The translations under genes and the position numbers were made by a program. A stretch of 64,000 bases of DNA from Patescibacteria group bacterium. Its GTDB lineage: Bacteria; Patescibacteriota; Patescibacteriia; GWA2-46-9. The stretch is taken from contig JBAZXG010000006.1 in NCBI GenBank assembly GCA_041660005.1, positions 1,879 to 65,878 on the forward strand, in the 5' to 3' direction. Positions 22,109 to 55,842 of this stretch are shown here, one piece after another. How positions within the stretch are numbered: the stretch's first letter is position 1; each line of letters starts with the position of its first letter. The notes below the pieces were generated by a model, which did no database searches, was not told the origin of the DNA, and worked only from the letters and a program-made list of their open reading frames with translations.

Positions 22109-22185
22109 TGGTGGGCGCGGATGGACTCGAACCATCGACCTCTTCATTATCAGTGAAGTGCTCTAACCAGCTGAGCTACGCGCCC
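22109..22185 (-). tRNA. tRNA-Ile (anticodon GAT), CCA encoded
   Basis: Reverse complement GGGCGCGTAGCTCAGCTGGTTAGAGCACTTCACTGATAATGAAGAGGTCGATGGTTCGAGTCCATCCGCGCCCACCA. It is not in an rRNA spacer here. Confidence 0.85.
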
Positions 22186-25878: not shown

Positions 25879-27465
<1,587 letters not shown>

Positions 27466-27559
27466 TTAATCCTCTTTGCTCCGAAGAACAAAGAGGGGTG
27501 GTTGCGATATAGACACACCGTCTATACCAACAACCGAAAAGAAATTTAACGGAGGTTTC

Positions 27560-37379: not shown

Positions 37380-37805
37380 CGGCTGCTTGACGCACGGAAT
37401 AATTTTTGAACGACCTCATACTGAGGGAAACCTGCCCGACTGTGTCATTCAGGCGGGGGAACATTAAGGAAAATCCCACACCCTAAACAATCCGCCTGCG
37501 AGTGAAGTAATCATGAGCACGCAGGCCGTAGGGCTTGCCTGCTTGCGCGCGGAATAATTACTTCACGACCTCACGCAGAGGGAAAGAGTTATTCGAGAAA
37601 ACTCCGCCAAAGGCGGACAGGCATAATGTTGTCTCGAAAGAGCTATTACTGAGTGAGAACTTTTCGAGAACCACAATCTGTCTATGACAGTTGTGGAAGC
37701 GGAGAAAAGTTCGAACGTCCTCTGCTGAGGGAAAGGAACATTAAGGAAAATCCCACAGGGACTTCCGTTGGTCGCCGGAAGGTTTGCCTTAACTCTTGAA
37801 AGGAG
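37380..37805 (-). repeat. Copy 3 (longest, modules A-B-C-D-A'-E) of the tRNA-flanking repeat family, immediately 3' of tRNA-His on the minus strand
   Basis: The reverse complement matches copies 1 and 2 module by module (e.g. gtgaagtaattattccgcgcgcaagcaggcaagccctacggcctgcgtgctcatgattacttcac). It begins gttaaggcaaaccttccgg just 3' of the tRNA, as at tRNA-Leu(CAG). Confidence 0.6.
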
Positions 37806-39526: not shown

Positions 39527-41034
39527 ACTTTTTTTATTATACCTCTATTCGCATCAACCTCAATAATATCGCCCTCCTTAATTTGTTCTAAAACGCCCTG
39601 CGCACCAACAACCGCCGGTATTTTTAACTCCCGCGACACAATTGCCGCGTGCGAAGTAATACCTCCTTCTTCCGTCACAATACCACCAGCAATTTTCATA
39701 ACGGGTATATACTCTGGGCGAGTGTTTGGCGCAACAAGAATGTCGCCACGTTGGAACTTTTTAAAATCTTTTTGACTAAGCACAATCTTGGCAGTACCAA
39801 TAACTTTACCAGGATACGCCGTTCGACCAACTACGTTATCAGTAACAACCAAACTATTCATAAACTGTAATAACGCCTTTGCTTCCCGACCGCTGACAAA
39901 CTGAAGAGTTGTTTTTTTAGGAATAGCAACAAAAATCCCTCGCCTACGTGTTTGTAATATCTTACGATACTGTGATGTCGGCGAAAGTAATTTTTCCGCC
40001 TCCCAATACAAGGCGTACTCCGCTTCACGTAATGGCACACGACTTCTTCTAGTAAATTCTTGAAGGTACCGCTTCAGTAGTTCGTTCCCCATTTGGTTCA
40101 TAGCTTTTCGCTCATCCCGCCAGGTGGCAACAATACTGATCATGTTCGCTACCAACAAAACGGCATGCGGAATTTTCATGCGGCGAATAAATACTTTTTT
40201 CTTTAATAAGTCCCTCTTCAAAACAGCAGGCAATCGTAACTCATTATTTAATTTCTTAGGATTTTTTAGCAGTTCACGAATTGTATTTAAAAAATGACTT
40301 GATGTCAGGCGACGTACAAACGCATAATCACTGAGTGACCAAAAATATGTATCAGTGTGTGCTTTAATTTTCTGAACAAAAAATGGAAACCGCTTAGTAA
40401 TAACACCAATACTTGCACCTTTTTTAATCAAACCCTGAAGAGCAGGATTTCTTTCTGCAGCGGCGGCAAGGCGAGCAATATCTAGACGTTCAATTTGTGT
40501 TGGTAGCAAATAAGGACTCTGAACTAGTAGGTCAACTTCGGCTGAAGTTAGACGCACTCCTGCTTTATCGCACACGTTGTAAATAAGTGTCTCTCCGAAC
40601 ACATCAAAAGCATCATGAAACATTGATTCGCGCCAGAGAGAGTGATACTTTTCAATTTCAACATAGTAGCACTTCAAAAGTTCTGCATTACTTAATTGTT
40701 GTATGCCAGCCCACGGCAGTCCTTTAACGACCGAATCTTGAAACTGTTTATATGATTTACGCCATTTTTGGTAGCGACTCCACATATCACCGGGAATGTT
40801 TTGCTCACGATGTAAAAAATAGTTTGTAACTCGCTTCGCATCTTTCTTGGAAAAAAACAGGGTTGCATAATCGTTACTAAAGTAGGTTAAAAAACAAAGC
40901 TGCAAATCCACTGTTTTTTGATCTACGGTCATAGCGACACAGCTACTGTATGGTGGCGAAATATACAAAATTTTAACTGCGGCACCTTGACGGTACCATT
41001 TCAGTTTTGCCAGCTCTTTTTGGACAAATTTCAT
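39523..41034 (-). CDS. Paralog 6: divergent ~410 aa N-terminal domain + C-terminal PEP-utilizing-enzyme phosphohistidine (swivel) domain
   Basis: C-terminus RGDILVAPNTRPEYIPVMKIAGGIVTEEGGITSHAAIVSRELKIPAVVGA (TSHAAI catalytic His). ATGA overlap with the downstream ATP-grasp gene. Confidence 0.8.
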   Translation of the reverse strand: MKFVQKELAKLKWYRQGAAVKILYISPPYSSCVAMTVDQKTVDLQLCFLTYFSNDYATLFFSKKDAKRVTNYFLHREQNIPGDMWSRYQKWRKSYKQFQDSVVKGLPWAGIQQLSNAELLKCYYVEIEKYHSLWRESMFHDAFDVFGETLIYNVCDKAGVRLTSAEVDLLVQSPYLLPTQIERLDIARLAAAAERNPALQGLIKKGASIGVITKRFPFFVQKIKAHTDTYFWSLSDYAFVRRLTSSHFLNTIRELLKNPKKLNNELRLPAVLKRDLLKKKVFIRRMKIPHAVLLVANMISIVATWRDERKAMNQMGNELLKRYLQEFTRRSRVPLREAEYALYWEAEKLLSPTSQYRKILQTRRRGIFVAIPKKTTLQFVSGREAKALLQFMNSLVVTDNVVGRTAYPGKVIGTAKIVLSQKDFKKFQRGDILVAPNTRPEYIPVMKIAGGIVTEEGGITSHAAIVSRELKIPAVVGAQGVLEQIKEGDIIEVDANRGIIKKV

Positions 41035-42548
41035 AACTTTCTTACTAATCCTTGATCACTATCAATTTCGACAAAATCACCATTCTTTAATACTTTCGTG
41101 GCGACTTTGGTGCCAATTATACAAGGGATGTTCAGTTCACGGGCAATAATTGCTGCATGGCACGTTATACCACCTTCGTCGGTAATAATGGCCCTGGCTT
41201 GACGCACAAGCGGCATAAATTCCGGCCGCGTCATTGTTGTTACCAAAATTGAACCTTTTCTAAATTTCGATTTACTGACCTCAAGCACTACCTGAACACG
41301 ACCTTGAATTTTTTTTACTGGCGAAGCAACAACTTGCCCTTTAATTTCTTTTTTACTTGCTTGGTTAATAAAAATAACACTCCAAATTTTTTTTGCACTG
41401 CTACCTGTATAAATATGTTCATAATTTATACCATTTCGTTTTGTCTGAACGAAAGCTGAAAACTTGCGACGTAGAGCTAATTCGCGTTTATTTGGTATTT
41501 TACCGCCACGCAATAACTGATGACGTTCTTCAATACTCAAATATTTTATCTCCCAAATATTTAGCTTGCTCCGCCGTTCAAGTTCGTTAGCATAAACCTC
41601 AAAATACAGATTAGCAATTAGTGCCAAATGCTTCCTTTCGTCTATCCAACTCATCCAAAAAGACAGTAGTTTAAAGGCAGTTTTTAATTCGTAAGAAAGT
41701 CTAAATTGTTTACGTAAGCGGAACTGTGCTAATCTTAGTCTCTTTATTTTTGATAGTAAATTATACAACTCGACTTTTAACTTTTTTTGAGAGTTCTCTT
41801 CGCATTGTCGTCGTACCTCTTTATAAAGAATGCTAGGAATCAATAAATTGGATTTCTTATAGTTTGAATTAAGCCAGAAATATTTTTTTGATAACAGATT
41901 GACAGTTTTTTGAAGCGCTGTCGGACTTTTTGACAAAGAACTGAATCTACGAACTACGCCGTACCATCGAACGGCTACTTCTAGAACTTCACATTGATAC
42001 TCCTCAAGAAAACTTAACTTTAATGGTTGCGATAAAGTTGCCATGATATTTGTTACCTCCGCTGGTGTAAGCTGCGGTAGCTCCCGAGATAGTAACTTCG
42101 GTAATTCATACGTTGTAAAAACATCTGCCGATTCTAATACCCAAGTAATTCGCCAATGGTCAAGAACGAGCCGATTAAAACGGTCCATGGATTTGATTAC
42201 TTCCTGATCGCTCAACCCATTTCTTGATTTAATAAAAAAATCTCCCTCTCTATTAATACCACGCCTAACTTCCCGCCAGAGTTCATAATTCTTTCGCTGC
42301 AATGTTGAACCTCTTTGATACTTTTTCCAAAGATAATGCCAGATTGCCAATTTTTGATCCTCGGGTGTCTCTTCAAATACAAAATCCGATTTGAAAAATG
42401 CTACCATAAAGTTTGGCAACGTTGGATGCCAAAATTTTGACTGCTCAACAAAAGCACGAACCCAAATAGAAAACATGGGCACCGCTGGTGCCTCCTCCGA
42501 CCAGTAAGTATGTTTTTTTGTTTCTTTCAACGTTCTTTCTAAACTCAT
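41031..42548 (-). CDS. Paralog 5: N-terminal unknown domain + PEP-utilizing swivel domain
   Basis: C-terminus KGSILVTTMTRPEFMPLVRQARAIITDEGGITCHAAIIARELNIPCIIGT; ATGA overlap both sides. Confidence 0.8.
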   Translation of the reverse strand: MSLERTLKETKKHTYWSEEAPAVPMFSIWVRAFVEQSKFWHPTLPNFMVAFFKSDFVFEETPEDQKLAIWHYLWKKYQRGSTLQRKNYELWREVRRGINREGDFFIKSRNGLSDQEVIKSMDRFNRLVLDHWRITWVLESADVFTTYELPKLLSRELPQLTPAEVTNIMATLSQPLKLSFLEEYQCEVLEVAVRWYGVVRRFSSLSKSPTALQKTVNLLSKKYFWLNSNYKKSNLLIPSILYKEVRRQCEENSQKKLKVELYNLLSKIKRLRLAQFRLRKQFRLSYELKTAFKLLSFWMSWIDERKHLALIANLYFEVYANELERRSKLNIWEIKYLSIEERHQLLRGGKIPNKRELALRRKFSAFVQTKRNGINYEHIYTGSSAKKIWSVIFINQASKKEIKGQVVASPVKKIQGRVQVVLEVSKSKFRKGSILVTTMTRPEFMPLVRQARAIITDEGGITCHAAIIARELNIPCIIGTKVATKVLKNGDFVEIDSDQGLVRKL

Positions 42549-43996
42549 ATTTTCCTCACAACTCCGGTGTTTCCGTTTACTTCAATTCTGTCACCCGTTT
42601 TAAATACAGCTGTAGCTATCTCTGTTCCCGTAACGCAGGGTATCCTAAGTTCACGAGAAATAATGGCTGCGTGCACGGTTACTCCACCTTCGTTCGTTAC
42701 CACGGCCACAGCTTTTTTCATGGCCGGAACAAAATCAGGGGTCGTCATTGGTGTAACTAAAATGTCTCCCTTTTTCAAAAATTTTATGGCTCGGCGAGGG
42801 TCCTCGGTCACAAATGCCCTACCGGTCGCGATACCAGCCGAGGCTGGTGCACCTTTAACAGAGGTTAGATTATTATTCTTTAATTTCAACTTATTATCAA
42901 TAAAGCGTAACGCTTGTTTACCGGTTTTTTCTAATTTTTTTGAGCCGTTCATAACAACCAAATAACCAGATTTACGATCAATTACTGTACGCTTTGGAAT
43001 TTTGCCGGTTCGAATAACACGACGCAGCTCATTTGGTTTCAGCCAAACGAGATCGGCCATTTTTAAACTATACGTCCGAGCAACTTTTCTTCTAATTTCA
43101 TCCATTAAAAAGAGCGAGCGCATCTGAATTTCTTTTCTTTGATCGTGCATGCGAGCGATCTTGTCAAGAACCGTCAAATAAGGTCGCACTACTTTTTCCG
43201 GCACTTGAAAACGCTTAAGAACGGCACGCCTATTTTCAGCAATTCTTTTTGCGTAGTCTAAAATATACTTTCTCTCTTGTTGATATTCTATTGATGTCAA
43301 TTTCGCACAAGCTCGAGTTTCTTGTTTTATTTTTTTTCGGGTCAACACCCCTCTTCCACCCCAACCTATAGTCAACCAATAATACTTTCGATAAATGTGC
43401 TCGACGTCTTGAGCGCTGACTAGAAATTTTTTATTTTTGATTTTTTTAGAGAGTTCAAGTATGGCCAATTTATAATTCAAAACTTCACTTCTGTACGCTG
43501 GTTGTAAAACCTTGGACCAGGCATCTTTGTCGTCTACTAAGTTCGGATATCCCTGACGTGAAACTTCTCTGGTCACTATTTCTTCAAAAAAGTCATCGAA
43601 CGCATCAATGCCAACACCAACGATACGGCAATGTTCAACAGCTAAGTCATGTATGGTTGTGTACACTTTGATTAAAGCTTCTGTGTTTTTCGGCAAAGTG
43701 GAAGAAATCAATAACGAAAAATACGCCAGAGCATTTTTGTAGTGCTTATTTTCCACTCTATAAAATCTTCCGTTCACACCACTTGTTATCATTTTTTGAA
43801 CCCACTTTACCCCAACATTTTTATACTCAGGCATCCCATAGGCCCAATAAATATGCGACCCCTTAAGCGCAACGGCTAAACGTGGAGCAATATGATACTC
43901 GACGCCGCGCATGGGTTTTGCCATAGATTCAAAGTATGGCTGAAGCGCTGCAAAGGTTACGCCATCCCGTTCATAAAGTTTGTACTGTGCATTCAT
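42545..43996 (-). CDS. Paralog 4: N-terminal unknown domain + PEP-utilizing swivel domain
   Basis: C-terminus KGDILVTPMTTPDFVPAMKKAVAVVTNEGGVTVHAAIISRELRIPCVTGT. Confidence 0.8.
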   Translation of the reverse strand: MNAQYKLYERDGVTFAALQPYFESMAKPMRGVEYHIAPRLAVALKGSHIYWAYGMPEYKNVGVKWVQKMITSGVNGRFYRVENKHYKNALAYFSLLISSTLPKNTEALIKVYTTIHDLAVEHCRIVGVGIDAFDDFFEEIVTREVSRQGYPNLVDDKDAWSKVLQPAYRSEVLNYKLAILELSKKIKNKKFLVSAQDVEHIYRKYYWLTIGWGGRGVLTRKKIKQETRACAKLTSIEYQQERKYILDYAKRIAENRRAVLKRFQVPEKVVRPYLTVLDKIARMHDQRKEIQMRSLFLMDEIRRKVARTYSLKMADLVWLKPNELRRVIRTGKIPKRTVIDRKSGYLVVMNGSKKLEKTGKQALRFIDNKLKLKNNNLTSVKGAPASAGIATGRAFVTEDPRRAIKFLKKGDILVTPMTTPDFVPAMKKAVAVVTNEGGVTVHAAIISRELRIPCVTGTEIATAVFKTGDRIEVNGNTGVVRKI

Positions 43997-45465
43997 ACTT
44001 TTTTGACCGTGCCTGTTTTGGTATTAACTTCGACAATATCACCATCTTTAAATACTTTAGTCGCCGCACCAGTGCGAACAAGGCAAGGGATACCCAGTTC
44101 ACGAGATACCACGGCTGCATGAGAGGTCATACCGCCAGTATCTGTAACAACTGCGGCTGCTTTTCGCATCAAAATAACAAACTCTGGAGATGTCATTGGG
44201 GCCACGAGAATATCCCCCTTTTTCATCTTTTTTTGATCTTTAAAGGGGTCTCTAATTATTTTGACTGCCCCTCTAACGTTGTAACCGTTTCCCCGACTAA
44301 CAACCAACCCCCTCACTTCTTTTATACTTTGACTGACTCTTGAGTCATACTTTTTTAGTAACGACTCGGCTTGCTTCCCGTAATATTCTTTTACTTTTTC
44401 TTTTCCAGAAACCCAACAGTAAACTTTAGCTCGAGAGATTATTTTTTTATAATCAAGTTTCTGCCTTTGTGCTAATTGCGTAACCTCCCACGGCCAACAC
44501 CAAACAATATCGTTAAATTTCCAATTGTTTCGCCAAGCAATTTCCTTCACTAACTTGTCTGTGTAAAACTGCATCCTCCAAATGTACATTTTGCGTAAAT
44601 CCTGCCACCAAATTGAGTTGCTGAGTTGTTCAGCCGTGAACTGAACATTTTTCGAAAGTCCGACATTTTTAACTAATGCTCTTTTCTTTTTTTGAGCGTC
44701 GATCATTCGACCCTCAATTTTTCTTATTCTTTTCTGCACATCGGATCGTGACGACAATCTCTTCACCTTTTTTTCAAAATATTGCTCACTCAAAATCTTA
44801 CTTCCCGCATAGTTACTCAGTAGCAAACGATATAGCTCTGCATGTTTCAAAAAAGCATTCAGCCGCTTTTTTTTGTTTTTTATCAATGCCAACCGTAACA
44901 AATCAAGCTCCTCCTGTTGAGTAAAGGAAAGTTTTGTGAGCGCTGACAAAGTTTCTAAATAATCTTCGGCCTTGTTTGCATCAATTTTTTTCAGACTATC
45001 ATAAAGAATTTTTTCTCCTCCCCAATTGGCAATCTCTGGTATATGCACAATACACCACAATGCATCCATGCAAACGTACGTAATCTCATAGAGAAGCAAT
45101 AAATCTTTGTCTGACAATCTTTTTACATCAACCGCTTCTAAAAAACTTATAATTTTCCTGGATTCGAGTACCCACCTTTCCCACCGTGACCAAAGCAACT
45201 GATAATTTTTTTTGTTTAAAAAATATTTTATAAAATACTTCTGACCCGTTTGTTCAAGGATGTTGTATTCAACAATCCCTACAATTTTTCCATCTTGAAA
45301 AGCCGCTACCATAGATGGCCATGGCCAAGGATAATCTTTCTTATTTTTTCTTCCTGGACCTTTTAAGGTATCACCCCAAATTCCAACGTACAATGGACGA
45401 CCCTCTACGGGTCCCCATTTAAAGAGTGACCTTTGCGGATTCACCATATAAGACGACCGGTGCAA
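43993..45465 (-). CDS. Paralog 3: N-terminal unknown domain + PEP-utilizing swivel domain
   Basis: C-terminus KGDILVAPMTSPEFVILMRKAAAVVTDTGGMTSHAAVVSRELGIPCLVRT. Confidence 0.8.
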   Translation of the reverse strand: MHRSSYMVNPQRSLFKWGPVEGRPLYVGIWGDTLKGPGRKNKKDYPWPWPSMVAAFQDGKIVGIVEYNILEQTGQKYFIKYFLNKKNYQLLWSRWERWVLESRKIISFLEAVDVKRLSDKDLLLLYEITYVCMDALWCIVHIPEIANWGGEKILYDSLKKIDANKAEDYLETLSALTKLSFTQQEELDLLRLALIKNKKKRLNAFLKHAELYRLLLSNYAGSKILSEQYFEKKVKRLSSRSDVQKRIRKIEGRMIDAQKKKRALVKNVGLSKNVQFTAEQLSNSIWWQDLRKMYIWRMQFYTDKLVKEIAWRNNWKFNDIVWCWPWEVTQLAQRQKLDYKKIISRAKVYCWVSGKEKVKEYYGKQAESLLKKYDSRVSQSIKEVRGLVVSRGNGYNVRGAVKIIRDPFKDQKKMKKGDILVAPMTSPEFVILMRKAAAVVTDTGGMTSHAAVVSRELGIPCLVRTGAATKVFKDGDIVEVNTKTGTVKKV

Positions 45466-45468
45466 TAA

Positions 45469-46479
45469 CTAATGCTGTGCATCTTCGGCTTCAAACTTCG
45501 TTTGTGCCGCCGCAGCTAACTCAATTATTTTATCCCAATCTAAAGAAACTTTTTTACCCTCAAAAAGCTTTGCGCGCGCTGGGTCGGTAAACTCACAAGA
45601 AATTTCCGTATCTCGAGTAAAATCAGCAATATTTCGAGGATCGCCAAGCCGAGTATCCCTTTGAAGCTTAAGACGTAAGGCTGTCGCTTGGCTTGTAAAG
45701 CCGCCAATTTCGTCAACATCATCAAAGCCAATTTTTCTCTCTCCCGTTTTTTCATCCTCAACAACTAAAGCATATTTGTATAAAGATTCAGCGAACATAC
45801 CACTGCCGACAATTGGAATGGCTTTTGTTTCTCCTCCCTTCACTCCACGGCGAGAAAGTTCTAGGGTCTTCATGAGCTCATATGCCTCATTTTCTGCCAT
45901 AGTCCTAACTTCGGGTTCCTTTTGCATGGCTTTTCTGAAAGCAATGTTTTGTGCCATCTCCACATATTTCACTCTAAATTCTGGGTCCTGCTTAAATCTC
46001 TCCTGCTCTTCCGGACTTAGACCAGAAACCAGTCGACTAATCTCTGTACTCACAAGTTCCATTTCAGCTCTAAATTTATCAAGAAGACCCGCCCCCTTAT
46101 AGTCAACACCAATGCCACGACGCGTACCAATCACTTTACCTTTTCCATTACGCACTCGAGCTGGGCCGAGATCTTTTGACAGTCTTCCGACACCAAACCG
46201 TCCGCTCCCTTTTAATATATCTTCCCCTGTCTCACCATGGCGCGACTCGTCTCCGCCTCTTGGATGAACGAGAGTCACTTCTGGTGGGTAGGCCTCACCA
46301 AATTCTCTAGACATTTGTTTACCGGCAGGGGTCAAATCTGTTGGATCTTTGAAAGTAATAATACTGCCATCACTGAACGTAATCTTTCTCTCTCCTCCAT
46401 AACGACTACCGTGTCGTCCTAGGTCAATATAGGTAGTTGCAACAAATTGTTTTTCAGCCTCTGGGTTTCTTTCTACCAT
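45469..46479 (-). CDS. Hypothetical protein, possibly histidine-phosphatase-like (RHG motif: IDLGRHGSRYGGE)
   Basis: 336 aa. The family call is weak and rests on one motif. Confidence 0.35.
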   Translation of the reverse strand: MVERNPEAEKQFVATTYIDLGRHGSRYGGERKITFSDGSIITFKDPTDLTPAGKQMSREFGEAYPPEVTLVHPRGGDESRHGETGEDILKGSGRFGVGRLSKDLGPARVRNGKGKVIGTRRGIGVDYKGAGLLDKFRAEMELVSTEISRLVSGLSPEEQERFKQDPEFRVKYVEMAQNIAFRKAMQKEPEVRTMAENEAYELMKTLELSRRGVKGGETKAIPIVGSGMFAESLYKYALVVEDEKTGERKIGFDDVDEIGGFTSQATALRLKLQRDTRLGDPRNIADFTRDTEISCEFTDPARAKLFEGKKVSLDWDKIIELAAAAQTKFEAEDAQH

Positions 46480-46480
46480 A

Positions 46481-47074
46481 TTAAAAGATGCTAAATAAAT
46501 CTTTTTTAAGTTGGCCTACTGACGTATAGAGTAGCACTTTCATACCCGCATCGTTAGCACCTTGCACCCTTTCAGGGCGATCGTCAATATAGACGGCCTC
46601 TTCTCCTTTAACCCCTGCCCTTGCAAGGGCTAAATCAAAAATTCTTTTGTCCGGCTTTCGAATATGGTCGAACCCCGACACCGTTTTTACGGTAAACAAA
46701 TTGTCCCATCCGTAGCTACTGTTTAAATACTCAAACCACTCCTTGGGATTATTGGATATCACTCCGAGAATGAATTTTCCTTTCAATGTCTTTATAAATT
46801 CATAGAGCTCAGTATTGGGAGCAAAATGTCCGTAGATGTTTTTATTTAGCTCAACAATATTGAGTTCACCCTTAAAATCTTTTTTTAGTTCTTCGTAATA
46901 TTTTTTTTCAGAAATATTCCCTAGGGTAAACTCCTTCCAATACGGCCGATCGTGGGCTGAGGCGTAAAGCTCGCCCGCGTTTAAACCATGTGACTCTTCA
47001 TACTGCCGAATACCGGGATTATACCCTTCGGTCACTAACACACTACCGGAATCGAAGAATATTGCCTTCACCAT
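46481..47074 (-). CDS. HAD-superfamily-like hydrolase/phosphatase
   Basis: 197 aa; motif I-like IFFDSGSVL, motif II VISNN, motif III/IV K...VYIDDRPE. Confidence 0.55.
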   Translation of the reverse strand: MVKAIFFDSGSVLVTEGYNPGIRQYEESHGLNAGELYASAHDRPYWKEFTLGNISEKKYYEELKKDFKGELNIVELNKNIYGHFAPNTELYEFIKTLKGKFILGVISNNPKEWFEYLNSSYGWDNLFTVKTVSGFDHIRKPDKRIFDLALARAGVKGEEAVYIDDRPERVQGANDAGMKVLLYTSVGQLKKDLFSIF

Positions 47075-47086
47075 ACTGTTTAGGCT

Positions 47087-48583
47087 CTATTTTGCCCGTT
47101 CAAGAATACGGACGATTCCTTTTTGCGCATCAACTTCCAATAAATCATTGTCACGAATAATGCGCGTGCCATTCTCTGTAGCGATAACGCACGGCACGCC
47201 GAGTTCGCGCGAAACAATTGCCGCATGTGATGAAAGCCCACCCTGATCTGCCACAACTGCCGCCGCTTTTTCCATAGCTGGTACAAAATCTGGCGTAGTG
47301 AATTGAGCAACGAGAATATCACCCCGGTTTACTTTGCCGATTTCACTTTTGTCCAGACACACCTTGGCTCTTCCTTTGATGATTCCACCAAGACAAGCCA
47401 TTCTTCCAAAAATTTCTTCTTCTTGTTTAACATCAACATAATACTTTTTTTCTAACTGCTTAATCCTTGCAGGATCAGTAATCAGTTCAGTAACGGCATT
47501 CCTAACCAGCATTGCATAGTCGCGAAGTCGCCGTTGCATCTCAGATATGTTCGGCAGTGATTTACCCTTGAGCGCACCAAACATTTCTGGCACCGACACC
47601 TCCATTATCCAGTCTTCATTAAACTTGGAACGCTTGGCAACTTCGGCATACATGAAACTTGCGCCATAGTCAGCATTAAAAAAAGCTTCCACTCTGCGGT
47701 TACGCATATACGAATGCATTCTTGCTTGCTTGATGATATGTAGAAAATCCTTTTTGGGTTTAATTTTCTTTAACGCCCACTTATAGTCATCTTTAATTTT
47801 CTGCTCAGAAGCTTGGTAAATTAAATCGCTGATAGACTCCCCCGCACTAATCTGCTTCTTTATTTCCTTTAACCTATCCACGATGTCCTTGAAGTTGTAC
47901 GGCTTACTTGTTGCGAGCCCCCTGTTAATATACGCAAATTTATCTAAATGCTTCTCAATAATTCCTGTTGCTTTTTTTGACAAGTGGCTAAGATCTTCTT
48001 TTCTTTCGGCAAATACTTTGGCGATACGGACAAGCTTCCACCGCTCTTCGGCGACATCGGTCATGTCCTCTGGGTCGGTAAAGATCAGCACATATTTCCT
48101 AAAATCCGGATTATCGGCAGATATATAGGACAACAATTGTTCTTCAATTAATCCTTCAAAATAAATATCAAGTGAATACTGTGCGTACCATGCGCACATT
48201 AGTGGACTATACTCTTCGAGGAGTGTCTTAAGAACGGACTCCATTTGTTTATTCGTCTTTTTGCTCCAGTCAACCTTTTTAAGTGCGAGTCCTTTTTTAT
48301 ACAAATGCTCGGCCCTCTTTAATTGCTGCTTAGCATATTTTTCAAACCAGCCGTCATTCTTTTTCATGTGACCAAGAAGCTCTTCTTCGAAAGGATTATA
48401 CTCTTCAGCTGACCAATACATCATGTGGTGCAAATATGCTCTATTAGGCAAGGTACGAGTGAAATAAGATTTTTTCGCGTTTTCGGCAGTGAACGACGCA
48501 TTAATGATAAACCTGATAAAAATCGGCAGTTTCCCCGATGGTTTGATTCTCCATTTTCCCGAATGCATAACAGCTCCAATCAT
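47087..48583 (-). CDS. Paralog 2: N-terminal unknown domain + PEP-utilizing swivel domain
   Basis: C-terminus RGDILVAQFTTPDFVPAMEKAAAVVADQGGLSSHAAIVSRELGVPCVIAT. Confidence 0.8.
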   Translation of the reverse strand: MIGAVMHSGKWRIKPSGKLPIFIRFIINASFTAENAKKSYFTRTLPNRAYLHHMMYWSAEEYNPFEEELLGHMKKNDGWFEKYAKQQLKRAEHLYKKGLALKKVDWSKKTNKQMESVLKTLLEEYSPLMCAWYAQYSLDIYFEGLIEEQLLSYISADNPDFRKYVLIFTDPEDMTDVAEERWKLVRIAKVFAERKEDLSHLSKKATGIIEKHLDKFAYINRGLATSKPYNFKDIVDRLKEIKKQISAGESISDLIYQASEQKIKDDYKWALKKIKPKKDFLHIIKQARMHSYMRNRRVEAFFNADYGASFMYAEVAKRSKFNEDWIMEVSVPEMFGALKGKSLPNISEMQRRLRDYAMLVRNAVTELITDPARIKQLEKKYYVDVKQEEEIFGRMACLGGIIKGRAKVCLDKSEIGKVNRGDILVAQFTTPDFVPAMEKAAAVVADQGGLSSHAAIVSRELGVPCVIATENGTRIIRDNDLLEVDAQKGIVRILERAK

Positions 48584-48601
48584 ATATTTCAGTTGAATTG
48601 A

Positions 48602-49171
48602 TTAAAGTAGTTTGTCGAAACAATGCGGATGTTCTATATAATATGAAAGCTCGCGCACAAAAGTTTCTACTAAGTTAATTTTGTTTTGTTGATGTAGTGC
48701 CCAAACTTCCTGTAGGTCGAAGGCATCAAAATCACTAATTTCAACTTTATTCGGAACGAATGGGCCGTCTGTTTGTCCTATGTACCAATATACCATGATG
48801 CCTCCTATCGATAAATCGGGCATGGGCAAAATTTTAAATAGGGTAATTTCTGTGTCGATCGACAGCTCCTCAGACAATTCACGCTTTGCTTCTTCTAGAA
48901 TTTCCTCTTTCGTGCTCGCGCCTGCGCCTACAAAACCACCGACTGCATACGACCAGCAATTGGGCTGTAAGTCTTTTGTAGCGCTACGCTGTTGTAGCCA
49001 AAATTTCCCGTCAGTATTACGTAACCAAATATGGGCTGACCGTCTCATTATTTTTTTGTTTGTTAAAAACTCTCTCCTACTCGCTCGACCAATGACCCTG
49101 TCGTTCATGTCAACAATATCATGAAGCTCTTCCAGCGAGTCAGTGGTATTGGTTAAGTTGACTTGACTCAT
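48602..49171 (-). CDS. NUDIX hydrolase
   Basis: Nudix box GGFVGAGASTKEEILEEAKRELSEELSI (GX5EX7REUXEEXGU). Confidence 0.8.
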   Translation of the reverse strand: MSQVNLTNTTDSLEELHDIVDMNDRVIGRASRREFLTNKKIMRRSAHIWLRNTDGKFWLQQRSATKDLQPNCWSYAVGGFVGAGASTKEEILEEAKRELSEELSIDTEITLFKILPMPDLSIGGIMVYWYIGQTDGPFVPNKVEISDFDAFDLQEVWALHQQNKINLVETFVRELSYYIEHPHCFDKLL

Positions 49172-49174
49172 AAA

Positions 49175-49813
49175 CTATTCGTGTAATTTTTGTTCTACGT
49201 CTTGCAGGTCATACAGATTTCCTATTTCTGCATAACCTTGCTTCACTCTGGCACCTTTATTGTCGTTTTGTATATGATAGGTGCGGTATGTAAAATCAGG
49301 GAGTTCACTAATCAATTCATCGGCAGCTTCGATAAACGACTGGCAGTTAATTACCCTGTCGTCGGTATAGACAACTGTCTTAAATCCTTCATTATATTTT
49401 CTTTTTAATAAGTCCTTCAACATCTCTTTTGTTTTGCAGTTAGTGTCTCCGTAATCAAACGTGCTATTAATTTCTTCTATGAAATCACGAAAATCAAACC
49501 CGCAACGAGGATTCAAATATTCTGCACGCCAATCAAGTTGCTCGCGGTTACCTTGAGTAAAAACAATATTATTTTTTGTCCATGTTAAAACATCTTTAAA
49601 TCCTTTATTCGGACCCAATTTGAACATCCCTTTTTTGTAAGGTTTTTCATAAAGCCACTCATAGTCACGCGGGCTAATTGTTTTTAAGTCATATCCTAAG
49701 GATTCGACATACGCGCCCATGTTCGAAAAACCTGTACCCTCAGCATCCCAAGGTTCGAGTATGATGGTATTTGCAATGTCCCAAATATAGAGGGTTTTAC
49801 TCTCGCTCGTCAT
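49175..49813 (-). CDS. Hypothetical protein, weakly HAD-like (LYIWDIANTII ... VVYTDDRV), paralogous to 46481-47074
   Basis: 212 aa; motif resemblance only. Confidence 0.35.
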   Translation of the reverse strand: MTSESKTLYIWDIANTIILEPWDAEGTGFSNMGAYVESLGYDLKTISPRDYEWLYEKPYKKGMFKLGPNKGFKDVLTWTKNNIVFTQGNREQLDWRAEYLNPRCGFDFRDFIEEINSTFDYGDTNCKTKEMLKDLLKRKYNEGFKTVVYTDDRVINCQSFIEAADELISELPDFTYRTYHIQNDNKGARVKQGYAEIGNLYDLQDVEQKLHE

Positions 49814-49815
49814 AT

Positions 49816-51348
49816 TTATATTTTTTTCACCACTCCATGATTTGCGTTAACTTCTACAAGGTCTCCGTCTTTCAAAACCTCTGTGGCTATTTTAGTTCCA
49901 ATAATACAAGGTATTCCGAGTTCCCTCGAAATAATTGCGGCGTGTGAAGTAACGCCACCTTCGTCAGTTACAATCGCAGCAGCTAACTTCATGGCAGATA
50001 TGTAATCAGGCCTCGTCATAACGGCTACCAGAATATCGCCTCTCTGAATCTTATTAACTTCTTTTACGCTTTTTAGCACCTTAACTCTCCCAACGACTTT
50101 TCCAGTAGAAGCAGCTAACCCTCTGAATTCGTTCATACCTGATACATCGGTACTGCCGAAAATTTTTTCTTTTACGGCATCCGCATCGTGACCAGACAAT
50201 GCTTCATGGCCTTCTTTGTCCCAATAAAAAACACAACCTTTTCTCCTCTCCCTTAACTCTTTTACCTTTGGCTTTTCCTGAAAAATTTTCGACACCTCTC
50301 TCGGGCTCAAATACTTAAGCTCTTCCAAGGGAATTCTTACCCTGCGGCTAATCTCTCCCAAAATTAAACTCATGTAATGCATTGTCCAAAACACCGCCTT
50401 TTTACGATCATCCTGCCACTTAGTAAAATCTTCTGAAATAGTGATCATTGCTTTGAGCTCACTCGATAGCTGCAATTTTTTCATCATTTCTTGCTTCTTT
50501 TTCTTATTCAACGCTGGCGTTTCTTTAACCCTTTTGAGTTCCTCTTTTATATTAAGCTTCAGTTTTTTAAGATTCGCTATTTCTTTTTTAAAATAGTCAA
50601 CACTCAACACATGATGATCCACATAATTATTATGAATCCAGAAGTAACTTTGCTGATGCTTTTTTAATGCTTCCCGACCCCCCTGCAGCGCAACGCTAAG
50701 TAAGCTCACCTCTGCTTCATTAATAAAAGAAAGATGTACCGGAGCGGTTAAAATAGAAAAAACATCTGTAAAACGGTGAGTGTTTTTTATCTTGGACTGG
50801 TTATACGCCACTTGGATCTTTTTTGCCACCAACTCATCAGTGCCAAGAGCAAAAGCGTCAATTAAGGAACTAGAGCTATTTCTCTTTAATATAACTTCTA
50901 CAAAGTCATCATGGAGCTGCATCAACGCTCGATTATTGAGCTTTGTTAACTTCTTTTGTTTAACTTCTTTGCATTTCTGATAAAATGCTACCTCATCTTT
51001 TTTCCAGAGCTCCATAAAGTAACGACTGACATGGGGAATCTTTTTCGCTCTTTTAAGTATGGCAGTATATGTTCTTTTGATGTCTCGCATCAAAATGTAC
51101 CAACTCATCCCTCCATCTCTAAAAAAACCATAATGTACACTACAGTCACCACCGAGCTTCCTTTCTTTGTGTACCTGAATTTCTGCTTCCGCAATGAAGT
51201 GAACAAAGTAGGGCGAGGCATCAAATGCTTGAAGATACCACTGTTTCCGAGTCCACAAATGTAGTTTTCTTTTTGTTAACCCTTTAATGTATTGCATGAA
51301 ATTTTTATTGCCGAGGATAGCGAGTGAAGCGCAAATAGCAATTTGCAT
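49816..51348 (-). CDS. Paralog 1 (first gene of operon): N-terminal unknown domain + PEP-utilizing swivel domain
   Basis: C-terminus RGDILVAVMTRPDYISAMKLAAAIVTDEGGVTSHAAIISRELGIPCIIGT. A shared N-domain motif (S/K)YFW..NY is seen in several paralogs. Confidence 0.8.
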   Translation of the reverse strand: MQIAICASLAILGNKNFMQYIKGLTKRKLHLWTRKQWYLQAFDASPYFVHFIAEAEIQVHKERKLGGDCSVHYGFFRDGGMSWYILMRDIKRTYTAILKRAKKIPHVSRYFMELWKKDEVAFYQKCKEVKQKKLTKLNNRALMQLHDDFVEVILKRNSSSSLIDAFALGTDELVAKKIQVAYNQSKIKNTHRFTDVFSILTAPVHLSFINEAEVSLLSVALQGGREALKKHQQSYFWIHNNYVDHHVLSVDYFKKEIANLKKLKLNIKEELKRVKETPALNKKKKQEMMKKLQLSSELKAMITISEDFTKWQDDRKKAVFWTMHYMSLILGEISRRVRIPLEELKYLSPREVSKIFQEKPKVKELRERRKGCVFYWDKEGHEALSGHDADAVKEKIFGSTDVSGMNEFRGLAASTGKVVGRVKVLKSVKEVNKIQRGDILVAVMTRPDYISAMKLAAAIVTDEGGVTSHAAIISRELGIPCIIGTKIATEVLKDGDLVEVNANHGVVKKI

Positions 51349-51584
51349 TTCCGAGCGACGATAGAATCAAAGGGTTTAATACCCCGCGGCTACGCCGCGA
51401 TCCCTTTCTCAATCCGCCCACTGGCGGATTGATGGATCCAGGGCTTTGCCCTGGGGTTAATACCATTTATTTGCTTTTCTGTGAGATACCGTTACTTTAG
51501 CCGGTAATGAAAGTTTAGGCAAATCAAAAAACTACGAATTTTCTAAGAAAAACGGGCATTTTCTCAGTATTTTCCGCTTAACCA

Positions 51585-51613
51585 TTGACACATTTCAAGG
51601 GATGCGCTATGCT
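51585..51613 (+). promoter_or_regulatory. Sigma70-like promoter TTGACA-N17-TATGCT on the PLUS strand, reading into the ORF-free structured region
   Basis: accaTTGACAcatttcaagggatgcgcTATGCTact. Confidence 0.4.
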
Positions 51614-51619
51614 ACTTAG

Positions 51620-52580
51620 TTCCTTAAATGGAACATCCCGCTCTTTCATAGATTTAAAACCATACAGGGGAGAGAGACTCTGTAGAACCAAGGGCAGCGC
51701 ACGCTGTTTTTGGCGATACGCAAAAAGGCGTAACTCTCTCGAGTTGCGTCTTTTTGCTAAAGACGAGGTGACTACCGACTTCTGGGGCTAGACCTGTTCC
51801 GCTTTATGTGGACGGGATGGCTGACGGAAAGAATGGGCTGGTGCATAACTAGCTTGCTCCTTCTTTAAAGCCCCACACTTGGACGGCTTTCGAGCCAAAC
51901 CCAAGCCCTAGCCCGGAGGTCGGTGGACATCTCACAAGATGCACACTTTTGTGGTGGTCCTGTTATCAGGGCACCCACCGATGTGGAGGGTTAGAATCGT
52001 TCCGCCGACAGTGCGGACGATCGTTTTGAAGGAAGGATTGTTCTGGTTTATACTAGAACGCACCTTCTTGAGAAACATACCCAACGAATACCTTCGGGTA
52101 ACACGTTGGCCTAACCTCCAAATCGGTGGGTTTGTAAAAAACTCACAAACAGTGCGACGCGCGTGTGCGACGATAATCCACTCCTCATGGGAGGGAGAGT
52201 GGACAAGGGTCAGGAATACACAATTTTCCTACCCGCTCGCACACTACGCCGACGGATGTGGATGGCTCTGGCACACATCCCTTCCGTCGAAATTTGGCCA
52301 CATGGTCACGCTTCTAACCTGCTCTGAGGAGTACGGCTAAAGCCCGTCCGTGGCCAAAAGTTGAGAGACGACCGCATAATCGTCTCGCCAACATTGGAGG
52401 AGTCGTCTTGCTAATACCAAGCGACTCCTCCTACCACTTTATTTTTATAATAGGTACGTCGCCCTTTGCGATGAACGTCTCAATGCGTTAATCTCAGTGG
52501 GCGCCTAGTGCCTCCTTCGCGCAAAAGGGTGGCGGAGACGTGACCTTTACGCCTCCGCCACTCGCAAATCTTTTTTGCGG
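51620..52580 (+). ncRNA. Candidate large structured non-coding RNA (~0.95 kb), GC-enriched relative to coding flanks, ending at an intrinsic-terminator-like hairpin + T6 (52531-52576)
   Basis: No ORF >133 aa in any frame across 51349-53375; only short composition-biased ORFs. Dense local hairpins. Promoter at 51585-51613 and hairpin GGCGGAGACGTGACCTTTACGCCTCCGCC followed by ...tctttttt. No match to the rRNA, RNase P, tmRNA or SRP hallmarks I checked by eye. Confidence 0.3.
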
Positions 52581-52794
52581 CCTCCTCCCCTGAGGTCGCA
52601 AAGGGGGGAGGGTGCGCTTGTGCAAAACCGTGCATGTCGTGCCCTCCTCACCTCTCTTTTCTATACACCGGCGAGCTCGCACTCTCGCCTCTTCTCAAGG
52701 GGCAAGTAGTTCTCAAACACAAACGTCTCCTAAACAGGAAACGTATGCCGCGAGATAAATCTCTCTCCTCCTACTTGCCCCTTGAGAAGAAAAG

Positions 52795-52875
52795 CTTTAA
52801 AGGAAACCACACGGTTTCCTTTAATATTTCTTTCCCTCAGCATGAGGTCATTCAAAAATTATTCCGTGCGAGAAC
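52795..52875 (+). repeat. Copy 4 (fragment, modules A3'/E) of the tRNA-flanking repeat family, not next to a tRNA
   Basis: ggtttcctttaatatttctttccctcagcatgaggtcattcaaaaattattccgtgcg vs 23528-23590 and the reverse complement of 37386-37440. Confidence 0.55.
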
Positions 52876-53375
52876 ATTGTTACTCTTTTGCTTGTCCGAA
52901 TTTATTAACAAGAGCGAGTCCGCCGGAGGCGGATCCGCCTTCGGCGGAAAAATGACACCCGAAGGACTCGGCTGGGGGCTTGCTTCAGTGAGTGGGTCGA
53001 CGACCATGAACTTGTCGTCCGCACAATGGCGGACTCCTCAAACAGCATGGTCGTTTCTCGGCTCACTTTCCTCGCAAACTCCTACGCCGATCCTATAGGT
53101 AGTTTCACTCGGCTCTGACAAACCCCATCATCGACCGAGGAGAGCAGACAGACGAAACGAACACGAAAGAGCGGCAATGCTGTCTGAAGCGTAGCAAGTT
53201 CATTGCCGCCGTGTTCGTTTCGGCATGGCTGCCGACCAGGAGCGTCGATGCGGGGCGCCCTTCTTTTGGTTCGTTTTCTTGGGCGTGCAAGAAAATGAAC
53301 AACCGGCGGCCCTGCATCGCAGGACAAGTTTATTGAGCGAAAATTTTAGAAGGTTACGTTATAAAACGTATACCA

Positions 53376-54179
53376 TTAGCCAACCACTTCCACTTCTTCT
53401 CTTAATTGCTTAATGCTTAGCGCCTTTTGAGAATTCTCATCAATCTCTACCAACACCGCATTAACAATGCAGGTGCCTGATTCTGGAATTTCATGGCGCA
53501 CTGGCTGCTGCGTCAAAAAGCCATGAATAATGTTTTCCTTATCAACCCCAAGCACCGTTCCTTTGGCTCCAATCATGCCAGCGTCAGTTAGGTAGGCCGT
53601 ACCGCCTGGTAACACTTCTGCGTCACTGGTTGGAACATGAGTATGTGTTCCGAGCACAGCGCTTACTCGTCCATCAACATACAATCCAAAAGCAACTTTT
53701 TCACTCGTCGCTTCGGCGTGAAAATCAACAATCGTTCCTGCACGCTCAACATTTTTGTACTCTTCCAAAATGGCGTCTATGGCGCGGAATGGACAATCTA
53801 AATTCTCGTTCATGAATACCCGGCCCAAAAGATTCACCACCAACAATTTTTGAGTTCCCACCGTTACAAACACAACACCACGACCAGGAACTCCTGGCGG
53901 GTAGTTTGCCGGCCGCAACAATGCTATTTTTTCATCATCAATGATCTCGTAGACTTCGGGTTTCTTGAAGATATGGTTACCGCTTGTGAACACATTAACT
54001 CCAGCCGCCTGTATTTCACTAATTGTTGCCATTGTAACACCTTTGCCATGCGCCAAATTTTCTACATTTGCGATAATCAAGTCCGGTCGATAACGGTCTT
54101 TCCAGTGCGGCAGCACCGCAGCAACACCCCGCCGTCCAATCCGCCCCATAACGTCGCCGAAGAAAAGTATGCGAAGCAT
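53376..54179 (-). CDS. ymdB: YmdB-family metallophosphoesterase (2',3'-cyclic-nucleotide phosphodiesterase-like, TIGR00282)
   Basis: 267 aa; ILFFGDVMGRIGR, GNHIF, calcineurin-like metal ligands. Conserved partner downstream of rny. Confidence 0.8.
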   Translation of the reverse strand: MLRILFFGDVMGRIGRRGVAAVLPHWKDRYRPDLIIANVENLAHGKGVTMATISEIQAAGVNVFTSGNHIFKKPEVYEIIDDEKIALLRPANYPPGVPGRGVVFVTVGTQKLLVVNLLGRVFMNENLDCPFRAIDAILEEYKNVERAGTIVDFHAEATSEKVAFGLYVDGRVSAVLGTHTHVPTSDAEVLPGGTAYLTDAGMIGAKGTVLGVDKENIIHGFLTQQPVRHEIPESGTCIVNAVLVEIDENSQKALSIKQLREEVEVVG

Positions 54180-54318: not shown

Positions 54319-55842
54319 TTACCGAGCGTACTCCACAACTCTCGTCTCGCGAATACAGTTAACCTTGATTTCTCCGGGGTAGTTCAACTCCGCTTCAATG
54401 TTTCGCGCAATTTGCTGAGCAAGTTTTACCATGCCAAGATCATCAATTTCGGTCGGCGTAACGAATACGCGCACCTCACGTCCAGCCTGAATGGCGTAGG
54501 CCTTGGTTACACCAGGAATAGCCGTCGCCACTTTTTCAATCTCTTCAAGACGTTGAATGTAGCGCTCCACCGTATCGCGCCGCGCACCCGGTCGTGAACC
54601 AGAAATAGCATCAGCCGTGCGCACGATTACGCCTTCAATGGTTTCTGGACGATCTTCGTGGTGAGCAATTGCCATGTAGGCCATCTTTTCAGGAATGCCA
54701 TACTTCTTCATTAAACGGTACCCCAACTCAGTGTGAGCGCCCTGCACTTCATGGTCGACCGCTTTGCCGATGTCATGAAAGAGACCACCCTTTTTACAGA
54801 TAGTAACGTCCGCTCCCAGTTCTTCGGCAAGTAACCCAGAAAGCACGCCGACTTCAATTGAATGCTGTAGCACGTTTTGACCAAAACTCGTGCGGAATTT
54901 GAGGCGTCCTAAAATCTGCACAAGCTTCGGGTCAACCCCCGTAAGACCCAGTTGATACATAGCCTCTTCGCCTGCTTTTTTCATTTCGAGCGCCAATTCT
55001 CGCTTAGCTTCCTGTACGGCTTCTTCAATACGGGTCGGGTGAATTCGCCCATCGAGCATTAACCGCTCTATGGCGCGCTTTGCCAAATGACGGCGCACCA
55101 AGTTGAATCCAGAAATCATGATGCTCCCCGGCGTATCGTCAACAATAATTTCAACACCGGTCAACTGCTCCAACGCTTTAATGTTGCGCCCTTCTTTTCC
55201 AATAATGCGGCCCTTCATATCGTCGGACGGCAAATCAACGGTTGTGGTCATGGTGTCCGCGGCATGCGAAATAGCACAGCGCTGAATAACCATAGCGAGC
55301 ACTCGCTTTGCCTTTTCTTCAATTTCAACGGCGCCCTCATCCTGTAATTTGCGAATACGCACGACAATGTCTTCTTTCACTCCACTCTCAATGGTTGCCA
55401 TGAGCTGTTCCGTTGCTTCTTCACGACTGAGCTTTGCTACTCCTTCGAGTTTTGTAACCGCCTCTTTTTCGAGTACAACCAACTTAGCGGACTGCTCAAC
55501 AAGCGTCGCTTTTGCTACGTCGATCTTTTTTTCTTTTTCGTCAACGTCGAGGAGCTTCGTTTCAAAAAGAGCTTCACGCTTTTCTAACCGCTTGTGTTGC
55601 TCTTTTAACTCTTGCCGCTCGGTCGTAATTTCCTGCTTCGCTTCATCGATAATTTTTATCGACTTCTGCTTAGCCGACAAAACCGCTTCCTGCTCCTGGT
55701 GCTTTGCTGCCGCCAGAATTTCCTGCGCTTTCGTCTCTGCTGAATTGACTGTTCGTGCGCCAAGAAACTGACGCACGACATAACCAATGCCGAAACCAAT
55801 AGCTACTCCGGCTGAAACCGTAATTAATATATTTGCTGACAT
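54319..55842 (-). CDS. rny: Ribonuclease Y (N-terminal TM, coiled coil, KH and HD domains)
   Basis: 507 aa; KH GxxG (IIGKEGRNIKALE), HD motif (LFHDIGKAVDHE). Confidence 0.9.
   Translation of the reverse strand: MSANILITVSAGVAIGFGIGYVVRQFLGARTVNSAETKAQEILAAAKHQEQEAVLSAKQKSIKIIDEAKQEITTERQELKEQHKRLEKREALFETKLLDVDEKEKKIDVAKATLVEQSAKLVVLEKEAVTKLEGVAKLSREEATEQLMATIESGVKEDIVVRIRKLQDEGAVEIEEKAKRVLAMVIQRCAISHAADTMTTTVDLPSDDMKGRIIGKEGRNIKALEQLTGVEIIVDDTPGSIMISGFNLVRRHLAKRAIERLMLDGRIHPTRIEEAVQEAKRELALEMKKAGEEAMYQLGLTGVDPKLVQILGRLKFRTSFGQNVLQHSIEVGVLSGLLAEELGADVTICKKGGLFHDIGKAVDHEVQGAHTELGYRLMKKYGIPEKMAYMAIAHHEDRPETIEGVIVRTADAISGSRPGARRDTVERYIQRLEEIEKVATAIPGVTKAYAIQAGREVRVFVTPTEIDDLGMVKLAQQIARNIEAELNYPGEIKVNCIRETRVVEYAR

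Follow-up and report, generated by a model that had tools for sequence, protein, structure and literature searches.

What does a 2-kb gap between two bacterial genes contain if none of its reading frames looks credible? The gap in question spans positions 51349-53375 of the window, by which we mean the whole 64,000-nt stretch analysed here, from contig JBAZXG010000006.1 of a Patescibacteria group bacterium. It is bounded by two minus-strand genes, with the start of a 510-aa PEP-utilizers open reading frame (ORF) at one edge and the stop codon of ymdB at the other. An earlier inspection of the letters alone (the sequence-only reading) had proposed that the gap gives rise to a plus-strand structured non-coding RNA (ncRNA) from a promoter at 51585, and our analysis supports this proposal: the promoter was found, the sequence behind it is 74% identical in a relative, its paired bases covary, and no reading frame is conserved. 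A genuine novel structured RNA gene is thus very probably present on the plus strand. The gene covers only ~51585-52830 of the gap, probably as two separable units; dispersed-repeat copies and lineage-specific hairpins make up the outer parts (51349-51584 and 52830-53375).

Coding capacity and composition of the gap

Contigs for comparison were gathered around YmdB homologues. One of them (L029) is the same organism as the window; in the others YmdB was identical to that of the window at 79% of positions (L030/L031), 69% (L034-L037 and L044), 65% (L038/L045), 64% (L039) or 63% (L040/L041 and L049). The closest named relative, at 79%, is Candidatus Uhrbacteria bacterium CG10_big_fil_rev_8_21_14_0_10_48_11. 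The RNA and its promoter are conserved in five Uhrbacteria-like lineages of the Candidate Phyla Radiation (CPR) whose YmdB is 63-79% identical.

The longest ORF within 51349-53375 is 154 aa, and Pfam returned no match with E below 0.25 for the six-frame translations of the gap, large protein databases not being searched; the earlier claim that no credible ORF is present therefore holds. When the core was compared with L031 in six frames, all frames behaved alike (69-102 bits, 36-40% identity), and mismatches were spread evenly over the three codon positions (45/47/45). With ymdB as control in the same comparison, the true frame stood out at 431 bits and 79% identity. The core has no conserved reading frame and is non-coding. 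A pseudogene or decayed coding sequence, which had been considered as a candidate, is ruled against by the six-frame Pfam search, the six-frame comparison and the codon periodicity. The NCBI protein for the gene at 49816-51348 (P0121) has 493 aa, whereas the longest ORF has 510 aa; taking the annotated start would extend the gene-free gap by ~51 nt, to near 51298.

In 300-nt windows the GC content was 0.51-0.55 across ~51650-53300, compared to 0.36-0.39 on the left flank, 0.44-0.49 on the right flank and ~0.46-0.48 for the window as a whole. The gap had been described as visibly GC-enriched over its flanks; this stands for the left flank, the enrichment being strong on that side only. The description of the region as hairpin-dense was borne out by folding, since the plus strand of 51620-52580 reached a minimum free energy (MFE) of -431 kcal/mol (z = -17.5 vs shuffles).

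A conserved promoter precedes the structured region

The near-consensus promoter reported earlier at 51585-51613 was recovered as a sigma-70-type site matching 10 of 12 consensus positions. Equivalent promoters occupy the same position in L031, L039, L040 and L049 (10-11 of 12 positions), and no change is seen among the five lineages in TTGACA, in GCTAT or in GTTC, the first bases to be transcribed. Transcription would start at ~51619-51621. Directly ahead of the promoter, L040 has a strong terminator, which indicates that the RNA is an independent transcription unit. The transcript length predicted from sequence motifs is 0.7-1.2 kb in all lineages.

The transcript would open with a short 5'-terminal hairpin and a leader that ends in a terminator-like hairpin (Table 1). 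The stem of this second hairpin is wholly different in L039 with pairing retained in the alignment, and in L040 the hairpin was listed as a terminator by the scan. Its loop, CUCUCUC, is complementary to the invariant GGGAGAG motif at the start of the leader. RNAalifold predicted that the two pair; both sides are invariant, hence the pairing has no covariation support, and we keep it as a possibility only.

A tandemly duplicated four-way junction forms the conserved core

A blastn comparison with L031 gave 74% identity over 577 nt for 51585-52154, whereas the ymdB coding DNA is 72% identical. Homologues in L039, L040/L041 and L049 were found by profile and covariance-model searches. The structure common to all lineages is confined to a domain of ~160 nt, present once or twice; the rest of the RNA is conserved in the window and L031 alone. 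In this domain, a four-way junction, a closing helix of ~23 bp encloses three hairpins, one of them capped by a UUCG tetraloop. A nearly invariant GGGYUAG / CUARCCC pairing adjoins the junction in the closing helix, and the spacing (GGGYTAG, 94-97 nt, YTTCGR, 13-16 nt, CTARCC) is kept in six instances. The tandem duplication was revealed by covariance model R1, built from four sequences, which matched domain A and, further downstream, its diverged copy, domain B. L031 carries the same duplication. With the domain-only model R2, domain B scored 148.7 bits on the plus strand and 45.9 bits on the minus strand, and the single-sequence MFE fold reproduces both domains.

The pairing pattern of this domain covaries among relatives. 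RNAalifold on four sequences gave 74 pairs, 27 of them with compensatory changes. Among seven domain instances (a six-row version was also run), 91.3% of cells pair, and both sides have changed at 38 of 66 pairs, compared to 9-14 when partners are slid by 1-3 columns; none of 500 shuffles attained any of the observed covariation measures. The seven rows include L049, which was not used in model building, and this independent sequence fits the domain structure. Relatives thus provide both the promoter conservation across five lineages and the covariation whose absence, according to the sequence-only reading, would speak against an RNA gene.

Three observations set the strand. The plus-strand structure holds many G-U pairs, folding favours the plus strand over the minus strand by 44 kcal/mol, and R2 gave 113-156 bits in the sense direction but at most 46 in the antisense direction. 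The RNA is encoded on the plus strand.

The 3' region contains a second, separable element

Beyond domain B the RNA evolves fast. In the alignment with L031 several hairpins of 52130-52576, including the terminal one, keep their pairing via compensatory changes, and 52460-52525 is 82% identical by blastn. The terminal hairpin and its T6 had previously been assigned as the terminator (52531-52576). The hairpin itself is real, but the T-run starts 9 nt past the stem, which explains why the terminator scan did not list it, and a better terminator lies at 52797-52824.

A second structured element lies ahead of that terminator, at 52690-52790. RNAalifold gave it 40 pairs, 15 of them compensatory, and it includes an invariant unpaired stretch, AAAUCUCUCUCCUYC. 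The element is shared in the same orientation by the window, L031, L034/L036 and L039 and is absent from the L040 and L049 loci. In L036 it occurs without the junction domain, beside an IS1595-family transposase gene. Its absence from L040 and L049 and its solitary occurrence in L036 indicate that it is separable from the junction domain, and it may be an independent small RNA. A promoter-like site lies just upstream of the element in L039, and in each of the four lineages with the element a plus-strand hairpin and T-run come after it. As judged from these motifs, the window would yield either one RNA of ~1.2 kb or an RNA of ~950 nt together with one of ~150 nt. The L036 transposase gene (6674-7450, minus strand) lies on the same strand as the element and immediately upstream of it, in the place that the junction-domain RNA takes in other lineages.

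The outer parts of the gap carry dispersed repeats

The RNA gene is flanked by sequence of a different kind (Table 1). The spacer ahead of the promoter, which has a weak minus-strand promoter-like site at 51598-51569, includes one copy of a GC-rich palindrome (51413-51428, TCCGCC-N-GGCGGA). In the window, five such palindromes resembling repetitive extragenic palindromic elements, TCCGCC-N(3-4)-GGCGGA, were found vs 0.03 expected. Past the RNA lies a copy of a dispersed intergenic repeat, which consists of a terminator-like hairpin followed by a conserved 40-mer, TTTCCCTCAGCATGAGGTCGTTCAAAAATTATTCCGTGCG; three copies extend into CAAGCAGGCAAGCCCTACGGCCTGCGTACTCAT. This repeat always lies just 3' of a stable-RNA gene, be it a tRNA or the new RNA, and in the orientation of that gene.

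The remainder of the gap, 52951-53375, showed no collinear similarity to relatives. Two short blocks (52877-52988 and 53253-53295) match L031/L034 inverted and in reversed order relative to ymdB, and at least six independent metagenome assemblies (L001, L029, L032, L033, L035 and L037) end 30-340 nt past ymdB. The segment 52870-53375 may be invertible or strain-variable, or may be a small mobile repeat. Of the nested inverted repeat noted earlier at 53145-53225, the 13-bp stem is real (53153-53222) but unconserved in relatives.

Table 1. Coordinates of the RNA gene, its parts, the surrounding repeats and the bordering genes in the window.
Feature	Position	Strand	Remarks
Sigma-70-type promoter	51585-51613	+	TTGACA-N17-TATGCT; 10/12 consensus positions
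5'-terminal hairpin	51619-51634	+	GTTCC-TTAAAT-GGAAC; GTTC invariant, stem covaries, formed in MFE fold
Leader	51668-51757	+	Invariant purine motif GGGAGAG at 51668-51674; multi-lineage alignment
Terminator-like hairpin	51720-51757	+	GCAAAAAGGCGTAAC / GTTGCGTCTTTTTGC; within leader, loop CUCUCUC
Junction domain A	51767-51931	+	R1, 262 bits over 51664-51940; R2, 156 bits over 51768-51930
Junction domain B	51975-52129	+	Tandem diverged copy of A, equal architecture and size; R1 positions 112-266, 85.9 bits
Hairpin-rich 3' extension	52130-52576	+	Fast-evolving; alignable with L031 only
Hairpin and T6	52529-52576	+	13-bp hairpin 52529-52561, T6 52571-52576; possible first 3' end; covaries in L031
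Second structured element	52690-52790	+	11-bp invariant stem GGGGCAAGUAG / CUACUUGCCCC; covarying outer stem
Intrinsic terminator	52797-52834	+	12-bp hairpin 52797-52824 and T-rich tail; probable 3' end
Dispersed-repeat copy past the RNA	52797-52950	+	Terminator hairpin, 40-mer TTTCCCTCAGCATGAGGTCATTCAAAAATTATTCCGTGCG (52831-52870), two palindromes (52919-52948)
Divergent-promoter / 5' untranslated region spacer	51349-51584		Three GC-rich hairpins; unconserved in L031
Hairpin-rich spacer up to ymdB stop	52951-53375		13-bp inverted repeat 53153-53222; unconserved
Dispersed-repeat copy past tRNA-Leu	17395-17467	+	
Dispersed-repeat copy past tRNA-Phe	23530-23584	+	
Dispersed-repeat copies past tRNA-His	37391-37430, 37546-37602, 37710-37749	-	
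GC-rich palindromes	17546, 37603, 51413, 52919, 52934		Three in gap; two inside tRNA-flank repeats
PEP-utilizers ORF	49816-51348	-	510 aa, longest ORF; C-terminal swivel domain
ymdB	53376-54179	-	Stop codon borders gap
rny	54319-55842	-	Precedes ymdB

Distribution and genomic context of the RNA gene

The simplest arrangement of the locus is found in L049 and L040, where the RNA is divergent from tRNA-His. The order in L049 is rny, ymdB, the RNA gene facing ymdB, the RNA promoter, a divergent tRNA-His promoter, tRNA-His and a cation ATPase gene, and the RNA terminator abuts the ymdB stop. In L040 the RNA gene and tRNA-His are paired in the same way, upstream of rny. An array of PEP-utilizers genes separates the two in the window, L031 and L039; L038, L040, L044 and L049 lack this array. 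A functional tie between the RNA and this array was considered and rejected, as the RNA occurs without it in L040 and L049 and L046-L048 have arrays without the RNA. The RNA therefore goes with tRNA-His and not with the dikinase-like array. GOLLD and ROOL RNAs are often associated with tRNAs. The earlier guess of a tRNA association of that kind thus fits as far as the linkage of this RNA gene to tRNA-His goes, but not as a match to GOLLD or ROOL.

One RNA locus was found per contig obtained, and no second copy in the 64-kb window. A search of genome contigs with YmdB found a best locus of 54% identity and none with similar DNA or with the RNA, the clade of the window being unrepresented in that collection. 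Viral contigs held nothing with the domain pattern or the 3'-element pattern, and phage and plasmid records showed no similarity by blastn. Two metagenome hits of the gapped domain pattern were dismissed as chance: they lie inside long ORFs and have no model match. The gapped pattern is itself too strict, since it demands exact matching across covarying helices.

Some loci have small ORFs near the RNA. In L049 the 5' hairpin and the junction domain are separated by an ORF of 86 codons (3917-4177, minus strand) that follows a GGGAGA Shine-Dalgarno-like motif; no homologue of this ORF was found in the window or the other loci obtained. Conserved small proteins downstream of the RNA were looked for in L040, L039 and L049 and rejected, none being common to two loci. 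In the stretch obtained from L044, a bAvd / 23S_rRNA_IVP gene (191-565, plus strand) lies directly upstream of ymdB, in the place of rny; bAvd is the accessory protein type of diversity-generating retroelements.

The array next to the gap is a feature of its own. Positions 38546-51348 (minus strand) form an island-like region of low GC (0.36-0.43) with six paralogues of ~500 aa (483-510 aa), each with a PEP-utilizers phosphohistidine swivel domain at the C terminus, after an N-terminal region of ~400 aa without a Pfam match. The same region encodes one free-standing PPDK_N ATP-binding protein (38546-39526) as well as a HAD hydrolase and a NUDIX protein, and the array looks like a split, multi-substrate dikinase system. 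Many CPR bacteria have close homologues, as do DPANN archaea (Woesearchaeota, Nanoarchaeota), and some of these homologues carry an N-terminal XRE helix-turn-helix. Similar arrays are found in L039 (6319-14966), L046 and L048, the last with at least 10 copies.

Elsewhere in the window, the 16S rRNA gene (25879-27467, minus strand, 1589 nt) covers the full bacterial model, positions 1-1533. No 23S or 5S gene follows it: an ORF of 283 aa lies directly downstream and tRNA-Ile (22109-22185, minus strand) is 3.7 kb away, so the rRNA genes appear to be unlinked. A candidate second large non-coding region at 1-3257 was rejected, as it holds a minus-strand ORF of 1092 codons that runs off the window edge.

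Comparison with known RNA families

Searching the whole window with cmscan against Rfam 15 at gathering thresholds yielded only the 16S rRNA and tRNAs. A permissive search (E<=10, lax filters) of 51000-53700 and 51600-52200 gave only sub-threshold miRNA and sRNA noise, and Rfam found nothing at the position of the RNA in the L031, L039 and L040 loci. RNase P RNA, SRP RNA and 6S RNA had no Rfam model match in the window, nor did ARAGORN find a tmRNA there. The earlier list of candidates (GOLLD, ROOL, HEARO, OLE, group I and II introns, RNase P, tmRNA, SRP and 6S) is thus matched by none of the Rfam models in cmscan. For group I and II introns there was no core-model match, a result that is weak on its own because the intron models of Rfam are known for low sensitivity; the RNA is not flanked by tRNA or rRNA halves, and its own promoter, its terminators and the lack of flanking exon halves argue against an intron. 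Literature searches found no description of a large ncRNA of this kind in CPR bacteria or Uhrbacteria.

Among large RNAs, GOLLD, ROOL and OLE share with this RNA a large size (predicted at ~0.7-1.2 kb here), dense covarying structure, lack of coding capacity, an own transcription unit (here a predicted one) and patchy occurrence. The new RNA differs in that one 160-nt junction module, single or doubled and set in flanks that vary freely, takes the place of a long multi-domain fold; it also has no match to their Rfam models, a CPR host and, in the searches above, no phage association. According to PMC12286853, GOLLD, ROOL and OLE form RNA-only homo-oligomers, and by analogy a repeated junction module would be compatible with self-assembly.

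Two further comparisons can be drawn, the first as a working analogy. The CsrB/RsmZ sponges, 6S RNA and bacterial Y RNAs are abundant and stable and have strong promoters and repeated or defined modules that bind protein, and their functional unit is small relative to the transcript. The new RNA differs from them in lacking an Rfam match and in having four-way junctions, not GGA hairpins or a promoter-mimic bubble; it also has no consistently adjacent partner gene, and its position relative to rny and ymdB changes. Tandem glycine riboswitches and the lysine and cobalamin aptamers resemble it in having tandem junction domains of ~150-170 nt, fixed size and invariant junction nucleotides, with a terminator-like hairpin nearby. 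Here, however, no riboswitch model matches, the hairpin precedes the domains, and three of five lineages have no downstream gene on the same strand.

Discussion

The RNA described here is a large structured bacterial ncRNA of a new family with a narrow known distribution. We favor, at a probability of roughly 0.6, the reading in which it is a novel plus-strand RNA gene whose product acts in trans as a platform. The near-consensus sigma-70 promoter would drive a transcript of ~950-1200 nt with a 5' hairpin, a short leader, two tandem ~160-nt junction domains and a hairpin-rich tail. The transcript would end at the hairpin and T6 (52529-52576) or at the terminator (52797-52834), and the 52690-52790 module would form the 3' end of this RNA or else a small RNA of its own. 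The junction domains would do the work of the RNA, as platforms on which a protein or another RNA binds or assembles, and the flanks appear to be stabilising or spacer structure. We base this mechanism on the fixed domain size, the invariant GGGYUAG/CUARCCC helix and the invariant apical pairs, on flanks that vary so freely that they even hold the 86-codon ORF in L049, and on the lack of a downstream gene to regulate in most lineages. Taken by itself, the proposal of a stable trans-acting RNA with the junction domains as platforms is tentative and stands somewhat below even odds; the probability given for the whole reading is a middle value between this and the much firmer case for a structured RNA gene.

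Several points weigh against this reading. The transcript ends are placed by motifs in the DNA, and a terminator-like hairpin with a U-run at 51720-51757, upstream of domain A, would be odd in a single stable RNA. The transcript in L049 encloses an ORF with a Shine-Dalgarno-like motif, and L040 has small genes on the same strand after the RNA. Nothing observed indicates a specific binding partner. The covariation statistics come from seven related rows, and an alignment fitted to a model leans towards structure. Finally, the RNA is known from five lineages, all located via ymdB, so the sampling is biased, and the close relatives L038, L044 and L045 have no copy in the contig stretches obtained; either the clade can do without the RNA or those genomes carry it at another place.

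The leader hairpin and the small ORFs would find a natural place if the RNA acted in cis, as a long leader or attenuator. In all lineages the U-run hairpin comes after the promoter and before domain A, with a loop complementary to an invariant upstream motif, an arrangement reminiscent of an attenuator; three same-strand small genes follow the RNA in L040, and the L049 transcript encloses the ORF with its Shine-Dalgarno-like motif. The window, L031 and L039 have no same-strand gene before the convergent ymdB, however, the downstream ORFs of L040 and L049 are conserved in no other locus, and the conserved part of the RNA is the junction domain, not the leader. A related version, in which a transcript convergent with rny-ymdB regulates or insulates their 3' ends, draws on the convergence of the RNA with ymdB in four of five lineages and on the terminator that abuts the ymdB stop in L049, but the L040 RNA does not converge with ymdB, and in the window the RNA terminator lies ~550 nt from ymdB, which leaves no antisense overlap. 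We consider a cis or antisense element of either kind unlikely. About as improbable, in our estimate, is that the RNA is part of a mobile or integrative element (or of what is left of one) with a link to tRNA-His, and has a cargo or maintenance function. Patchy occurrence among close relatives, two positions relative to rny-ymdB, the tRNA-His linkage, the adjoining island-like low-GC array that four relatives lack, the IS1595 transposase gene next to the 3' element in L036, the flanking dispersed repeats, and the nearby contig breaks and inverted short blocks would all suit such an element. Yet in the window the RNA has no integrase, transposase or direct att-like repeats at its edges, the contigs obtained have a single locus each, and phage, plasmid and viral collections gave no match. 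Islands usually integrate at the 3' side of tRNAs, and this RNA lies 5' of tRNA-His. RNA divergence also tracks YmdB divergence, as vertical descent predicts.

That the RNA is a highly divergent member of a known family (RNase P, tmRNA, introns, GOLLD, ROOL, OLE, HEARO, 6S or SRP) seems very improbable. Its size and tRNA adjacency recall GOLLD and ROOL by analogy, and CPR bacteria, according to PMC13011429, often carry divergent or intron-interrupted RNA genes. The permissive Rfam search gave no family at E<=10 for the window and three homologues, however, and ARAGORN gave no tmRNA; the own promoter and missing exon halves stand against an intron. A tandem-duplicated four-way junction is not known from any of those architectures. 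Least credible of all is a decayed protein-coding gene or mobile element. The outer parts (51349-51584 and 52951-53375) are unconserved and rich in repeats and hairpins and may well be non-functional, but the core has no Pfam signal, no dominant frame and no codon periodicity, is conserved above the neighbouring coding sequence, and shows compensatory changes in its pairs behind a conserved promoter.

If the trans-acting RNA gene is what the locus holds, its kind matters. There are few large structured bacterial RNAs without an assigned function, and every one of them has led to new biology or a new RNA architecture. A transcript of ~1 kb with a consensus promoter and a duplicated, size-constrained domain, yet non-coding, implies a selected function. 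The narrow distribution is a counterweight, with five lineages and no copy in the obtained parts of some close relatives. At slightly less than even odds, we think, the RNA represents a new clade-specific class of large, abundant CPR RNA, built from one or two copies of the junction module, linked to tRNA-His and acting as a ribonucleoprotein scaffold or by self-assembly; such a class would be comparable in standing to GOLLD, ROOL and OLE yet unrelated to them. The small size of the domain (~160 nt), its covariation and its invariant junction nucleotides make it a module that can be used directly for genome-wide Infernal searches, in-vitro structure determination and pull-downs. CPR/Patescibacteria have genomes of ~1 Mb, are mostly uncultured and have scarcely been mined for RNAs; if the reading is true, this RNA would be a first handle on RNA-based biology in tiny-genome organisms of largely obscure physiology.

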